In this document: in pieces, positions 13,861-19,584 of the stretch
Position numbering within the stretch: position 1 is the stretch's first letter
How the letters are laid out: each line of letters begins with the position of its first letter
Virus record (IMG/VR): IMGVR_UViG_3300011906_000001
Coordinates: 186,001-233,433 of that record
Direction: 5' to 3' (one strand)
Source: an uncultured virus (IMG/VR IMGVR_UViG_3300011906_000001)
Lineage: Duplodnaviria; Heunggongvirae; Uroviricota; Caudoviricetes
Length of the DNA: 47,433 nucleotides
Program-made: the position numbers and the translations under genes
The notes under the pieces: generated by a model
Databases searched by the model: none
The model's input: the letters and a program-made list of their open reading frames with translations, nothing else
What the model was told of the DNA's origin: nothing

Positions 13861-13900
13861 GGTGTATAGGAATCAGGTAAACCCTCGTCATTGGAGTAAT

Positions 13901-16042
13901 ATGATGGGAACTAAAAAAGGTAATCGTGAAATCCCAATGTCTCTGCTGGGACAAACTGCACTTGATCCATATTTTGGAACCACGAGTGCTGCACGGGGAG
14001 CTATGATGAACACCCACATCGGTCAAGCCCCGATTGTGGAAGACAATGAACCCAGACGGACCTTTACTGGCGCAGAATTGCTGTATAGTCAGAAGACCTT
14101 TGACATCAGATTTCCGTGTGATGCTCAGGTGCTCCATGTCTTAAGAAAATATCCCACAGGCATGGGTGGGGATTCGATTAAACGAAACCCTATCACAACC
14201 ATCATTTACGAAGAGTATTATGATGTTTATAAACGCGTAGGCGTTATCCACGTTCCTGAATTTAATTCCCTGCATCAAGATTTCGGTTATAAGTACGAAA
14301 AGAATCAAGATGTGTGGGAGCAGATGGGACGTCAGGATGCAGTGTTTGAAAAGGACACGGTTCTAGCGGCTTCTACGGCCGTTAAGAAAGACGGTCAATA
14401 TGGCATGGGTCTTAATGCCACTGTAGCCTTCATGAGTCATCCTGGCACCATTGAAGATGGCTTTGTGATGAGTGAGTCCTTCACCGAACGCACCAAGCCT
14501 CGGGTGTATAACACCGCCATTGCGAACTCTGGTCGTAAGGCGTTCATGCTAAACCTCTATGGAGATGACCACACCTATAAACCCATGCCGGATATCGGGG
14601 ATAGAATCCGTGACGATGGGGTGATCTTTGCCCTAAGGGACATTGATGACGATCTGACGCCAGCGGATATGACCCCACGCGCACTCAGGACTATTGACCG
14701 GGCATTTGACAGACCGGTTATTGGAAAACCTGGAGCTCGGGTGGTTGATATCACGGTGTATCATGATAACCGCACCAATCCTCAATCAACCCCGATGGGA
14801 ATGGACAGGCAGCTTCGGAAGTATTACGATGCTAACTGTGCGTATTATCGTGAGATCTTAAAGATCTATAACAGCCTTAAGCGACGTGGGAAACAACTCA
14901 GGATCACCCCTGAGTTTAACCAGCTGATTGTTGAGGCGATGGTGTATCTCCCAACCCCTGAGAGTGACCGTAAGCTGACACGCGTCTATCGCCTTGAAAC
15001 ATTGGATGAGTGGCGAGCGGAATTGACGTATGAAACTATCCTAAAACCGGCTGAAGCATTTAAATATACAGATTTGGCGGGAGGCAAAGGTGTCAACTGT
15101 CTAACGGTTCCAGATGATCACATGCCCGTGGATCAGAATGGCAATCGAGCAGAAGTAATCATCTATGGTTCCTCAACCAATAGACGATCGAACTTCGGAC
15201 GACTGTATGAACATTTCACGAATGCTGCTTCTCGTGATCTGTTGTGTCGGCTAAGGGCACAGTGTGGATTCCAAACCCACACTAAACCCACTCTTCATCA
15301 ACTGATGCAGCTTAAAAGCCAACCGGAGTTGATTGAGAACATCTTTGCAACGCTCATGCGATATTATCAAATCGTCGCCCCGAAGCAGCATGCGCTACTG
15401 GTGGATGATACGGATAAGTATCGTCATGTAGCGGCTGTTCTTAAAGACGGTGATTTCAAGAAGCCTGGGATCAGTCTCTGGACACCCCCTGATAACGATG
15501 TGAATCTTCTTGACATGACCCGTACCTTGGTTAAAGGAGAGTTCTGTCCACATTATGGACCTGTCACCTATAAGGACACCGAAGGCAATACCGTGACAAC
15601 GGCTAATCCCATTCTGATCGCTGATCTTTACATGATCATGCTCGAAAAGGTTGGAGAAGATTGGAGTGGTGTGGCATCTGTTAAAACCCAACATTTCGGA
15701 TTGCCAGCGAAAGTCACAAGTGCTGATAAGTCAAGCACTCCAGGACGGGAACAGCCGGTTAGGACCATGGGGGAATCTGAAACCAGATCCACCATCTGTA
15801 CGGTTGGACCTGAAGCCACCAATGAACTGCTGGATCAAACCCACAACCCAGCAAGCCACTGCTTTGCGGTAGAGAACATTCTAACGGCAAACCGACCGAC
15901 TGATATTGATGTGGTTGTCAATCGCAACAAGGTGCCTTATGGAGGCTCTCGTTCGGTGGCGCTCTATCAGCATTTGTTGGAATGTCGTGGGATTCGCTTT
16001 CGGTATTTGAAAGATCAACCTGTTATTGTTAAGGGCAAATAA
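13901..16042 (+). CDS. nvRNAP beta-like subunit, C-terminal half (phiKZ gp71-73-like), uninterrupted
   Basis: Motifs IEDGFVMSES, KYTDLAGGKGV, RSNFGRLYE and VRTMGESETR correspond to RpoB C-terminal conserved regions. GGAG SD precedes ATG 13901/13904. Confidence 0.92.
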   Translation: MMGTKKGNREIPMSLLGQTALDPYFGTTSAARGAMMNTHIGQAPIVEDNEPRRTFTGAELLYSQKTFDIRFPCDAQVLHVLRKYPTGMGGDSIKRNPITTIIYEEYYDVYKRVGVIHVPEFNSLHQDFGYKYEKNQDVWEQMGRQDAVFEKDTVLAASTAVKKDGQYGMGLNATVAFMSHPGTIEDGFVMSESFTERTKPRVYNTAIANSGRKAFMLNLYGDDHTYKPMPDIGDRIRDDGVIFALRDIDDDLTPADMTPRALRTIDRAFDRPVIGKPGARVVDITVYHDNRTNPQSTPMGMDRQLRKYYDANCAYYREILKIYNSLKRRGKQLRITPEFNQLIVEAMVYLPTPESDRKLTRVYRLETLDEWRAELTYETILKPAEAFKYTDLAGGKGVNCLTVPDDHMPVDQNGNRAEVIIYGSSTNRRSNFGRLYEHFTNAASRDLLCRLRAQCGFQTHTKPTLHQLMQLKSQPELIENIFATLMRYYQIVAPKQHALLVDDTDKYRHVAAVLKDGDFKKPGISLWTPPDNDVNLLDMTRTLVKGEFCPHYGPVTYKDTEGNTVTTANPILIADLYMIMLEKVGEDWSGVASVKTQHFGLPAKVTSADKSSTPGREQPVRTMGESETRSTICTVGPEATNELLDQTHNPASHCFAVENILTANRPTDIDVVVNRNKVPYGGSRSVALYQHLLECRGIRFRYLKDQPVIVKGK

Positions 16043-18007
16043 ATGAACCGCTATCGGGCTGAAGACCTGCTGGCAATGGATGAGGATCAACTGTGGGCGC
16101 TCCCGGAGGAGCGCCATACGGTTTTATTCACCGATGGTGAAATCCAGACCCATACCAGAGCCACCATCATGAGTGTGTACCTGTGGTATCCCTTCAAGAT
16201 GGTACCAGGTGCTCCTTTGATGATGAACCATCATGTGGGCGATGCATGGATCAGTGGGCGTAAGATGCTGAACATGATCAATCAATGCATCTGGGATATC
16301 CATAGCCACAGTGGAGAGACGCACGATCCTGAACATCTGTCTAAACTTGCGATTGAAACCATCAACCGTATCTATAATCAGATGACAGTGAGACTAAGTG
16401 CTCACGTCACCACGTTATCGATGTTTGACATTCTGGAGGTCATGGACCATCCTGAAATCAAAGCCGCTAATACCGAAGTTGAACCCACGACGGTCTCGAT
16501 TGAAAAGATGGCTTATCCACGGATCATCAAGGCGTTGAAAGACCCTGATTCGTTAAAAGGCAATCCCATCGCGCTAGGGGTTAAGGTGGGAACCCTTAAG
16601 AGCGATCAGCTCACTCAATCGTTCGGTCCACGAGGCAAGCCGACTGATATCAATGGTGATATCTTTCAAGAACCCATCATGACAGGGTTTGTGGAAGGCA
16701 TCTGGGGGCTTTATGAATCCATGGCTGAATCTCGATCAGGCTCTAAAGCCTTGCTCTATAACAAGGAGCTTCTCAGGTCAACTGAATACTTCAACCGAAA
16801 GACCCAGTTGATTTCCCAGTATGTCAGTAACCTTCATCGAGAAGATTGTGGCACACCTCACCTGATTGACTTCCCGGTCTTTGAATCGATCCTGCCTCAA
16901 ATGAAGGGTAAGTATTACCTCAAAGAAGATGGCACGCTTGATTGGCTCAAAGGCGATGAAAAGCACCTCATTGGAAAGCGCATTAAAATGCGTTCCGTAA
17001 TAGGCTGTGTTCATCCCGATCCGTCTGGGATTTGTCAAGTGTGTTATGGGCGGCTGTCGTACAACATTCCGTTTGGCACTAACATTGGACATGTCAGTGC
17101 CGTTCATATTGGGGATAAGATCACCTCCAAGGTATTGTCCACTAAACATACTGATGCATCAGCTAATGTGGATCGGTATCAACTCCATCAAACTGAAGCG
17201 AAATATCTGAAGTATGGTGCAGCTGAGGAGGTACTCTATCTTCGAAATGTATTAAAGGGTCGTAAAGTCACGCTGATGCTTGAGCGCGATGAAGTGCATG
17301 CCTTGGCTGATGTGCTGATGATTAAAGACCTCACCGCTTATCCTGTAGGCAATGCCAGTAACCTCACAAAGATCGGAATTCGAACGGAAACAGAACACGG
17401 GACGACTCAGGATATTCTGAATGTCTCGCTGTATAACCGTAAGTCTTCGTTGTCTCGTGAAGTGCTTGAACATATCCAAAAGCATCGTTGGACGCTTGAT
17501 GATCGTGAAAACGTCATTGTTGATCTGACAGGCTTTGATGTGAACAAGCCGTTCCTTGTATTGCCCTTTAAACATGTGAATATGTTTGAGGTCATGAAAC
17601 GCATTCAAAGCTTCATGCATTCAGGCGCAGAAGGTGAGAAGCCAAAGCTTGGACGAGGTGGATTTACGGGCAGAACTTATCTTAAGAACTATCGTGATCC
17701 AGTCGAGGGGTTGGCCGTCTTTGCCTCGATGCTCAATGAAAAGCTAACGGCTAATCTTGTGCATTGTGAAGTCTTGATGTATGCCATGATGGCTCGCAAT
17801 CCAAGCCAGAAGGATTTCAGGCTTCCCGTGCCTGGCATCTCTGGGGTCTTTGAGAAATACAGCAGGCTGATGCATAATCGGTCGCTGTCTGGAGCCATGG
17901 CATTTGAGCGTCAACATGTGCCATTGAATAACCCTGCAAGTTTTAACTATAAGTACCGTAATGACCACCCGTATGACACTGTGATCATGGGTGGCGCTAT
18001 GGATTGA
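16043..18007 (+). CDS. nvRNAP beta'-like subunit, C-terminal part (phiKZ gp74-like)
   Basis: Beta' Zn-site cysteines (EDCGT; RSVIGC...ICQVCYG) and NIGHVSA...VLSTKH in the trigger-loop region. Abuts the beta gene. Confidence 0.9.
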   Translation: MNRYRAEDLLAMDEDQLWALPEERHTVLFTDGEIQTHTRATIMSVYLWYPFKMVPGAPLMMNHHVGDAWISGRKMLNMINQCIWDIHSHSGETHDPEHLSKLAIETINRIYNQMTVRLSAHVTTLSMFDILEVMDHPEIKAANTEVEPTTVSIEKMAYPRIIKALKDPDSLKGNPIALGVKVGTLKSDQLTQSFGPRGKPTDINGDIFQEPIMTGFVEGIWGLYESMAESRSGSKALLYNKELLRSTEYFNRKTQLISQYVSNLHREDCGTPHLIDFPVFESILPQMKGKYYLKEDGTLDWLKGDEKHLIGKRIKMRSVIGCVHPDPSGICQVCYGRLSYNIPFGTNIGHVSAVHIGDKITSKVLSTKHTDASANVDRYQLHQTEAKYLKYGAAEEVLYLRNVLKGRKVTLMLERDEVHALADVLMIKDLTAYPVGNASNLTKIGIRTETEHGTTQDILNVSLYNRKSSLSREVLEHIQKHRWTLDDRENVIVDLTGFDVNKPFLVLPFKHVNMFEVMKRIQSFMHSGAEGEKPKLGRGGFTGRTYLKNYRDPVEGLAVFASMLNEKLTANLVHCEVLMYAMMARNPSQKDFRLPVPGISGVFEKYSRLMHNRSLSGAMAFERQHVPLNNPASFNYKYRNDHPYDTVIMGGAMD

Positions 18008-18061: not shown

Positions 18062-19584
18062 ATGGAACCGTTACTGAAAGCGGAGCATTACTCTCACGGA
18101 GTGAGGCTCATGGGCTTTAACCGTGAAGTGTTTTCAAAGATGACGGCTTTCTTGGAGTCGTTAAGTTTAAAAGAACCTGTTAGAAGTCAGTTTGGTCATA
18201 TGACCATGGAATTGAAAAAGCGCTACTATGGACTCACCGCAGACCATAGAGAGCTTTTCATTCACCGCAACAGTTTTCCTGACCTTGTTAATTTTTTAGC
18301 CCATCGTGGCATTGATCAATCCCGCATAAGCCAGGTGCATATCCCAGCACCGGCTTGTGTGCCTGTGGACTATGTCGTCCTTCCACAATATGTCTTAAGG
18401 GACTATCAAGAAATCATCGTTGAGGAACTGGCAGACTTATTATATTCTAGGAGGCTCGATCTCCAAACGGGAAAGGAAAGTCCCTCAGCGCGTTAGCTGC
18501 TTTAGCGCGACTGAGGGTTAAATGTGTTGTAATGGTAGCCCCCAAGTATTTTGGGATCTGGGTTAAAGCATTAAAAGAAACCTATAAAGACATCGATGAG
18601 CGATATGTAACGATCTCTGGAAGTGAAGAGCTTAAAATGCTCATCAATCGAGGACTTAATAACGACCTCCCTTTTGATTTTTTTATTGTCTCAAATACAA
18701 CCTACCGTGCTTATCTGGATAATTATGAAAAGTACGGAATGGGGATTGAGGAGTTAGGGTATGGTGTTCCACCTTATCGGTTTCATGAAACGATAGGGGT
18801 TGGATGTCAAATCGATGACGAATATCAGGATGATCCGGCATTGTCATTTCGCATCGACATGTACACGAATATCCAAAAGAAGATCTTTCTGTCAGCCACC
18901 CCCTTTACAGGAAACCCTTACGTTAGTCGAATGATTAATGTGATGGTCCCTGAAGAAACCAAATGCACTCTCCCCTCGTACGATGCGTATGCCAATGTCG
19001 TCGCCTTGCTGTATAGCGACATGCATATCAAGCCTAAGGATTACCTGACGCCTTATAAAAACACCTACAATCACAGCCGTTATGAAAAGGTTATGATGAA
19101 CCATAAGGGTCGGCTAGCCACGTACTTTGCGATGGTTAAACGGATCGTTAATGGCGTTTATGTCAGGGATCGTATTAAAGGTCAGAAGCTGCTGATTCTG
19201 TGCTCGACGGTGGTGTTCATCCATGCCCTGACTAAATACCTTAAAAAGGAATTCCCAGAGCTTGAGATCAATGCGCACGTACAAGGGTGCGATGCAACAA
19301 AACTTCAAACCAATGATATCACGGTCTCGACGATTAAATCATCGGGTACCGGTCAAGATATTATTAACCTAAGGGAGGTCATACTGCTTCAAGCCACAGG
19401 CTCTGAACGAGACGGTGAACAAATCAAAGGTCGACTCAGGAAATTAAGAGATTTCCCAGATGTCAGCCCGCGATTGACTTACTTAGTATCTGCTCACATC
19501 CCTCAACATCAACGTTACCATGAACAACGCATGAAAGATTTCGAGGGTAAATGTAAGAGTCATCGGTGTATGCGACTGGGGTAA
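18062..19584 (+). CDS. SF2 helicase (phiKZ gp75-like), 507 aa if joined by a -1 frameshift at 18469-18475
   Basis: ORF1 has the Q motif LRDYQ and LQTGK. The -1 frame continues GKSLSALAAL... into ORF2, which has DEYQ, SAT and QIKGRLR. Confidence 0.88.
18449..18517 (+). other. Candidate programmed -1 frameshift signal (internal SD + G_GGA_AAG + stem-loop)
   Basis: AGGAGG at 18449-54, heptamer at 18469-75 in the zero frame, 6-nt spacer, hairpin at 18482-18517. Confidence 0.75.

Follow-up and report, generated by a model that had tools for sequence, protein, structure and literature searches.

In Escherichia coli the dnaX gene gives its tau and gamma products by means of the heptamer A_AAA_AAG, a 5' Shine-Dalgarno (SD)-like element and a 3' stem-loop, and some bacteria are described as having a 'reversed' dnaX, in which the long product needs the shift (PMC5009743). 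The slippery site of lambda G/GT is GGGAAAG (PMC3296357, Table 1), a heptamer that in the phase G_GGA_AAG is reported as highly shift-prone in E. coli (PMC5009743). In the present study we analyse a stretch of 47,433 nucleotides, hereafter the window, which represents the last 47 kb of a 233,433-bp uncultured virus record of IMG/VR (IMGVR_UViG_3300011906_000001; CheckV completeness 78%), and we focus on a helicase gene located at 18062-19584. This gene is one base short in the GK-GK codons of its P-loop, and its sequence makes it probable that a real -1 programmed ribosomal frameshift (PRF) takes place within the P-loop itself. The mechanism is of a known kind; the gene is new to it, the place is unusual, and the convergent recurrence of the break is the remarkable aspect. 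No description of this helicase frameshift site was found in the full-text literature on frameshifting in jumbo, phiKZ-type or Chimalliviridae phages, PA1C or PS119XW, and the mentions of a frameshift found in PMC11849849 concern an engineered mutant of another gene.

The locus (18062-19584) is formed by two head-to-tail open reading frames (ORFs), both on the + strand. ORF1 (18062-18496, zero frame, 144 aa, ending in ..LDLQTGKESPSAR*) covers the N-terminal domain and, after it, the Q-motif helix and strand beta-1, and reaches halfway into the P-loop (..RRLDLQTGK), QTGK being followed by six out-of-frame codons (ESPSAR) and a TAG; the zero frame at the site reads CAA ACG GGA AAG GAA AGT CCC TCA GCG CGT TAG. 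ORF2 as annotated (18532-19584, 350 aa) lies in the -1 frame with an ATG start at 18532. The continuation of this frame at 18475-19584 comprises 369 codons and a stop and encodes GKSLSALAALAR.., completing the P-loop and the rest of both RecA-like domains. The -1 frame is open from 18451 through 19584, with a preceding TAG at 18448-18450, and ORF1 ends at 18496; since the frames overlap only there, the shift is confined to 18451-18496. A -1 slip at the heptamer leads to QTGK-GKSLSALAALARLRVKCVVMVAPKY.. and to an intact motif I (P-loop, QTGKGKS), which in the window is found solely in this trans-frame product. By arithmetic from the coordinates the product has 138 + 369 = 507 aa, which is also the length of P0002, the closest unsplit relative. 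A sequence-only reading of this DNA had already proposed these zero-frame codons, the phase of the heptamer and a 507-aa product with an intact P-loop, and all of them are present.

The gene product is an XPB-like superfamily 2 (SF2) helicase of the phiKZ gp75 / PhiPA3 gp068 family, which belongs to nucleus-forming jumbo phages. The two ORFs align with consecutive parts of the PHROG_16 profile ('DNA helicase'), ORF1 with 66-213 (E 9.7e-10) and ORF2 with 300-607 (E 7.7e-15). The homologues form 91 clusters at E <= 1e-20, most of them with 504-537 aa and with PhiPA3 gp068, itself called 'DNA helicase', among them; phiKZ PHIKZ075 was matched at 59.6%, and a family match is present in 298 phage records. 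The -1 frame continuation shows an identity of 60-68% to unsplit relatives, and an alignment of 30 homologues that includes the window has 51 invariant columns. No Pfam family was found at E <= 0.01 for ORF1, ORF2, P0002 or P0084, and a sequence-profile search of the PDB gave one marginal match (3h1t, E 0.0055). The fold was read from an AlphaFold 2 (AF2) model of the unsplit P0002, 68% identical and with a predicted local distance difference test (pLDDT) score of 90.8, and not from the window protein. In this model an N-terminal alpha/beta domain (residues ~1-95) is followed by the helix of the Q-motif region, strand beta-1, the P-loop and helix alpha-1, and the best PDB matches are XPB in TFIIH (E 1.8e-15, template modelling (TM) score 0.61) and archaeal XPB, with Chd1/Snf2 remodellers and T4 UvsW as the next ones. 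Judging by the model, the shift site is placed between beta-1 and alpha-1 of the first RecA-like domain, and the zero-frame product is predicted to consist of the N-terminal domain, an orphan strand and half a P-loop.

The slippery heptamer GGGAAAG (18469-18475, + strand) lies in the codons ACG GGA AAG with the phase G_GGA_AAG, that is X_XXY_YYZ, and is the proposed site of a tandem -1 slip of tRNA-Gly and tRNA-Lys. After a spacer of 6 nt (GAAAGU, 18476-18481) comes a 3' hairpin on the same strand (18482-18517) of 15 bp and a 5-nt loop, whose arms are formed by 18482-18496 and by 18502-18509 together with 18511-18517, with a bulged A at 18510. Its pairs are 9 GC, 4 AU and 2 GU, its minimum free energy (MFE) is -23.3 kcal/mol, and the zero-frame TAG (18494-18496) makes up the final three bases of the 5' arm. 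Evaluated over 45 nt, the hairpin has a z of -4.19 and no equally stable structure among 200 dinucleotide shuffles; likewise, none of 500 synonymous-codon randomisations of the same peptide folded as well. As a genome-wide control, we collected the 134 in-frame X_XXY_YYZ heptamers (Y = A/T) of 205 long ORFs in the whole 233-kb record, and the 3' 50 nt of the window site are the most stable of all of them, with -23.3 against a mean of -9.3 (standard deviation 3.8) and -19.2 kcal/mol for the next. No Rfam family was found for the hairpin, the single match, at chance level (E 5.7), falling elsewhere, and a terminator and promoter scan made no call at the hairpin, which is not terminator-like.

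The third element of the window is an intragenic SD-like AGGAGG (18449-18454, + strand) in two Arg codons, 14 nt before the heptamer, which is a possible 5' stimulator. In the whole record AGG accounts for 10% of the Arg codons and AGG-AGG for 2 of the 176 Arg-Arg dicodons, and the six unsplit relatives with the peptide SRRLDLQ always encode Arg-Arg as CGN-CGN. The calculated anti-SD duplex has -10.2 kcal/mol in the window, the unsplit loci showing a mean of -3.0 and a minimum of -7.0 kcal/mol. Thus, both the AGGAGG at 14 nt and the one-bulge, 15-bp stem with two GU pairs at 6 nt, which had been noticed from the letters, are borne out.

We propose that ribosomes in the zero frame would decode ..Q-T-G-K and that a fraction of them, stalled by the 15-bp hairpin 6 nt downstream, would slip back one base with tRNA-Gly and tRNA-Lys on G_GGA_AAG; in the window phage the internal AGGAGG may help. 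The slipped ribosomes would continue with GGA AAG TCC.. and complete the 507-aa enzyme, whose QTGKGKS is intact, and the non-slipping ones would stop 7 codons on, at the TAG inside the hairpin, releasing a 144-aa N-terminal fragment. The slippage, its efficiency and any role of the short product are what we infer from the sequence, and the full-length enzyme may be made in a fixed ratio to a 144-aa product that might itself be functional. The P-loop is a GK-GK repeat encoded by GGN-AAR-GGN-AAR, and a -1 slip exactly offsets a one-base deletion at a slippery GGA-AAG because the G is read again and GGN-AAR is recreated.

This arrangement resembles dnaX in the in-phase heptamer ending in AAG, in the simple stem-loop ~6 nt downstream, in the internal SD-like element upstream and in the two products with a common N-terminus; with the reversed dnaX it shares a long functional product that is the shift product and a zero-frame stop close by (PMC5009743). 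In contrast to dnaX, the gene encodes an XPB-like SF2 helicase and not a clamp-loader subunit, the heptamer is G_GGA_AAG, the site is inside a catalytic motif and not between domains, and the SD-like element is unconserved among split lineages. The likeness to lambda G/GT consists of an identical heptamer read by bacterial ribosomes on a phage mRNA (PMC3296357; PMC5009743), and the earlier statement that GGGAAAG is the lambda slippery site holds (PMC3296357, Table 1). Only the heptamer is shared, however, as the protein is unrelated (a helicase and not a tail-assembly chaperone); lambda requires both products, and its shift lengthens the protein close to the end of gene G, whereas in the window the shift would occur in the first third of an enzyme and be needed for any activity. 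Lambda G/GT is not known to need a strong 3' hairpin.

Two further systems come close in other respects. The 'savior' indel in a G-run of the herpesvirus thymidine kinase gene is, as proposed here, a real indel partly corrected by ribosomal slippage, its non-shifted product is probably useless and the state is recurrent (PMC5009743). In that case low-level slippage takes place on a homopolymer and there is no dedicated stimulator, whereas the canonical heptamer and the lineage-specific hairpin of the helicase gene point to selection for efficiency. IS911, with the IS3-family arrangement orfA/orfAB, is likewise a -1 PRF of bacteria in which the heptamer ends in AAG and a 3' structure is present (PMC5009743). 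It differs from the window in that the gene encodes the transposase of a mobile element, the heptamer is A_AAA_AAG, the stimulator is a more elaborate three-way junction, and each of the two overlapping ORFs is of ancient standing instead of being the product of a split of one conserved ORF. In IS3-family orfAB the catalytically active protein is made by the shift only, as we propose for the helicase.

The break is found again, at the DNA level, in cultured phages. In the phage collection, the species Pawinskivirus PS119XW is represented by seven records from six independently sequenced isolates, and all the isolates, namely PA1C, HHBS36_1, BRkr, phiLBG22, phiHQ and PS119XW, are split at the same codon; in their records the helicase is annotated as two coding sequences (CDS) or left unannotated. 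Four of these isolates are given as >95% similar, with origins in Poland, Japan, Russia and France (PMC11591403), and the GenBank records of the other two indicate Germany and Pakistan. The window and all six isolates share CAAACGGG-AAAGG in the alignment and show a one-base gap relative to the unsplit HPP-Temi and PhiPA3, HPP-Temi belonging to the same genus as the isolates with ~80% nucleotide identity. A metagenome contig, L046, is likewise broken (GAC CTA CAG ACG GGA AAG GGA AGA CCC..), its -1 frame reading GKTLSALAALARKGCRCVVMVPPKYFGIW. It is the one helicase among 29 matches in metagenome contigs of a pattern scan for a frame-broken D-L-Q-T-G-K, a pattern that would miss, for example, P0097 (LYLQTGK); the same scan gave 5 matches in viral contigs and 29 in genome contigs, with no helicase in either set. 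By megablast the gene had no match in the phage collection, and a scan of viral contigs with a single protein gave one locus, which is unsplit.

Three split lineages, the window, Pawinskivirus and L046, could therefore be compared as DNA, and ACG GGA AAG G is present in all three. G_GGA_AAG occurs in 3/3 of them and in 0/24 distinct unsplit loci; the Thr codon is ACG in 3/3 split and 3/24 unsplit loci, and the first Gly codon is GGA in 3/3 and 2/24, respectively. The alignment of homologues for the same split is thus positive, the six Pawinskivirus isolates and L046 having the same codon, the same G_GGA_AAG and a hairpin at 5-6 nt. The SD-like element behaves differently: the anti-SD duplex of L046 has -7.3 kcal/mol (9 nt upstream) and that of PA1C -3.9 kcal/mol. 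The cassette of SD, heptamer and hairpin that had been called dnaX-style is therefore complete in the window, where alone the SD-like element is strong, but its SD part is weaker in L046 and in PA1C looks like that of the unsplit genes, so that the three-part dnaX architecture is not conserved among split lineages.

These comparisons bear on the possibility of an assembly or sequencing error, by which the true gene would be unsplit, its GK-GK codons having, for instance, an additional G or A, and the cassette would be coincidental. The record comes from an uncultured virus in IMG/VR, its CheckV completeness is 78%, and no reads could be placed over the site; its two closest relatives, P0002 and P0084, are unsplit, and so are 25 of the 28 other IMG/VR loci, the remaining 3 having a large in-frame insert and none of the 28 being split. 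However, an error would not be accompanied by the heptamer, an AGGAGG and, after 6 nt, a hairpin of 15 bp, all of which the unsplit relatives lack, and the same architecture is found in six isolate genomes and in L046. Furthermore, the rest of the window is full of long intact ORFs, tightly packed, and for this reason the assembly is not generally riddled with indels. We consider an error at this site highly improbable.

The hairpins of the three split lineages, one in each, have 15, 15 and 11 bp, spacers to the heptamer of 6, 5 and 6 nt, and MFEs over the 3' 50 nt of -23.3, -19.2 and -18.1 kcal/mol. Each of the three stems begins with the CCC of the (T/S)-L codons and contains, in its 3' arm, a bulged A; their inner stem sequences differ, and in all three lineages the zero-frame TAG begins 19 nt past the heptamer. 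The 24 unsplit loci show a mean MFE of -12.75 kcal/mol (standard deviation 3.9), and the split lineages occupy ranks 1, 3 and 4 of 27, for which the one-sided rank probability, by our own arithmetic, is 4/2925. In PA1C the fraction of synonymous-codon randomisations folding as well is 0.014. The stems arise largely through synonymous differences from close unsplit relatives, as seen in PA1C (CTC ACG AGC .. TTG GCT TCG) versus HPP-Temi (CTA ACA AGT .. CTT GCC TCG) and in the stem codons of L046 (TCG GCC) versus L028 (AGT GCT). The stems were compared through pair lists, and an ungapped three-sequence covariation analysis was dropped, the 3' arms being out of register between lineages. The unsplit PhiPA3 (L002, 1497-1560) also has a local fold of -23.1 kcal/mol just past the P-loop codons, which starts ~13 nt downstream and has no in-phase slippery heptamer there; it may be what remains of the cassette found in its Pawinskivirus relatives, or an early form of it.

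The geometry of these elements is also relevant to transcriptional slippage, in which the phage RNA polymerase would add a base on GGGAAAGG and translation would then be ordinary. Such phages have unusual multisubunit RNA polymerases of their own, the gene just upstream of the helicase gene bears the annotation of an RNA polymerase beta subunit in relatives, and transcriptional slippage is the known alternative in the dnaX of Thermus (PMC5009743). However, the homopolymer runs at the site are of just 3 nt, bacterial slippage being cited with 9 A or T, and a hairpin located 5-6 nt 3' of an in-phase X_XXY_YYZ corresponds to the geometry of ribosomal and not of transcriptional slippage (PMC5009743). 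We therefore find the transcriptional route very unlikely, and ribosomal slippage at the heptamer is the reading that we follow here.

At the protein level the same break recurs beyond the lineages with DNA. A search with ORF1 gave four other short proteins, P0093 to P0096, of 140-145 aa, ending in ..QTGKEKLSPV*, ..QTGKERP*, ..QTGKAKPSVL* and ..QTGKARP*, respectively, and an exhaustive search added P0097, which ends in ..LYLQTGKERAWVR*. If the Lys codon is AAG, the tails of P0093-P0097 would back-translate to G-K-(T/S) in the -1 frame. Among the eight short N-terminal proteins counted (P0103 and P0105 were left out), the six named P0092-P0097, of which P0092 is the window's own, end directly after QTGK. 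On the other side of the break, 7/91 C-terminal clusters, of 349-361 aa, have their first residue at the Met of VMVPPKY or shortly ahead of it; P0093 and P0077 (longest contig of both 14675), and P0094 and P0018 (2912), are probably neighbours.

In order to place the split forms, a maximum-likelihood tree of the C-terminal region was built with 91 rows, P0091 (no anchor) and rows with <300 aa of the region being dropped. The eight split forms correspond to eight state changes on this tree, well-supported branches force at least seven, the bootstrap 5-95% range is 8-8, and a quick version agreed with the careful tree (8 changes). Close neighbours of split and unsplit type are P0006/HPP-Temi, L046/P0024, P0056/P0072, P0090/P0089 and window/P0002. 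Since eight split forms need eight changes, the break arose, or less parsimoniously was repaired, many times at the same codon. The compensation of a deletion in the GK-GK codons by a -1 slip would explain why the same break recurs in separate lineages.

This distribution has also to be considered in the light of a pseudogene, that is, a true one-base deletion that inactivated a dispensable helicase and left the two ORFs as remnants. The split lineages are all tips with unsplit sisters, and other breaks occur, as in P0100. The replicative helicase of these phages is said to be another, DnaB-like protein, so that the enzyme studied here might be non-essential (bioRxiv 10.64898/2026.09.30.755723). 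Random hits would be expected anywhere in the ~1.5 kb of the gene, however, and yet 6/8 short N-terminal proteins end after QTGK, with PA1C and L046 broken at the same codon as the window. The heptamer and the hairpin are enriched in the split lineages only, the family is present in hundreds of phage records, and viable cultured phages carry the break. Nor is the gene decaying, as both halves match PHROG_16, the 51 invariant residues are kept and there is no second lesion in either half. A pseudogene is thus very unlikely in our view.

A last possibility is a true split into two polypeptides, in which ORF1 would assemble with an ORF2 protein translated from a start of its own. In the Pawinskivirus records the gene has been called as two CDS, and in PA1C (L001, ~1483-1515) a TTG of the -1 frame lies 33 nt before the heptamer, just past a TGA, from which a product ..ANGKGKT could be made. 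This TTG is a possible alternative start of Pawinskivirus, without counterpart in the window or L046, where no ATG, GTG or TTG was found in the -1 frame upstream of the heptamer. The first ATG of the window (18532), moreover, lies past the P-loop and the start of helix alpha-1, giving a product without Walker A. In P-loop NTPases, both pieces lose the ability to bind ATP when the loop is cut between GK and GKT, which makes a two-polypeptide split unlikely; we give it hardly any credence, and a single trans-frame enzyme is preferred.

Several observations weigh against a programmed frameshift or reduce the force of the evidence for it. Two of the short N-terminal proteins do not end at the P-loop: P0100 (139 aa) diverges ~25 residues before it and P0122 (120 aa) stops ~15 residues before it; common errors, the end of a contig or some other kind of break may account for them. 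All the split lineages sit at tips of the tree beside a close unsplit sister, a pattern compatible with a short-lived tolerated mutation and with an adaptive device alike. The hairpin statistic of L046 is weak, 0.136 of the synonymous randomisations being equal to it; the unsplit L011, with a 3' fold of -22.0 kcal/mol, is the only one of the 24 unsplit loci that is comparably stable, and with synonymous randomisation the unsplit PhiPA3 and L026 reach 0/500 and 0.024. Pawinskivirus has no SD-like element, its duplex of -3.9 kcal/mol being as in unsplit genes. The six isolates differ by 1-4 nt in 1541 and hence represent one lineage, with no power for a ratio of non-synonymous to synonymous rates (dN/dS); their 7 variable codons comprise 3 synonymous and 4 non-synonymous ones. 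The DNA-level signals cover three split lineages, the other five to seven being protein fragments whose heptamer and hairpin are unseen. Finally, among the public read runs one shares a small part of the words of the stretch, no RNA run containing it was found, and the three runs that were placed gave a single 245-nt contig piece at 19225-19469 and nothing over 18469-18480.

The evolutionary path may have led from slippery synonymous codons to the deletion and then to the hairpin. The split state may be adaptive, by way of dose control or as a 'savior indel', or it may be a mildly deleterious mutation that is sustained by slippage, and the tip-only distribution fits both. In a more speculative proposal, which we put forward as an unlikely but not negligible one, the break would be a repeatedly selected throttle on the XPB-like helicase in chimallivirus lineages, with the deletion coming first and the hairpin, sometimes with the SD, being tuned afterwards; it would set a low or fixed dose of enzyme versus a free N-terminal XPB-DRD-like domain. 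Possible purposes of such a throttle are the escape from a host defence that senses or is triggered by the helicase, or a link by which the amount of helicase made would follow the translational state of the infected cell. The P-loop might also be an intein target in sister lineages, and recoding in the P-loop might be a general, overlooked way by which phages gate ATPases.

As regards annotation, at least five GenBank records call two unrelated-looking CDS where the correct product would be a single helicase of 507-510 aa, and both pieces should be joined in gene catalogues and in counts of core genes for nucleus-forming phages. If the frameshift is real, it represents a -1 PRF inside the catalytic motif of a conserved enzyme, with the shifted product as the only one able to work, and a rare documented case of one recoding site born independently many times (8 changes on a 91-taxon tree). 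This recurrence offers a natural experiment on the birth of frameshift cassettes, with slippery codons, deletion and hairpin as its components.

The helicase gene (18062-19584) is located directly downstream of genes (window 13862-18007) that in relatives are annotated as RNA polymerase beta subunit. With this neighbour and a fold like that of XPB, the TFIIH translocase, a role in phage transcription and not in replication is worth considering; the replicative helicase of these phages has been described as a DnaB-like protein (bioRxiv 10.64898/2026.09.30.755723). The P-loop is also the site of the large in-frame inserts mentioned above. In L007 and L008 (open frame 71-2692 in both) and in L032 (122-2710), an insert of ~345 aa is placed directly after GKGK, beginning with Ala, ending in ..THN before the Thr/Ser and containing LAGLIDADG-like motifs, and its sequence suggests an intein that includes a homing endonuclease. 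Of 29 matches in the exhaustive search, 10 have 692-862 aa, which is the size expected for forms with the insert, and the fragment P0114, the only one read, shows the same start of the insert.

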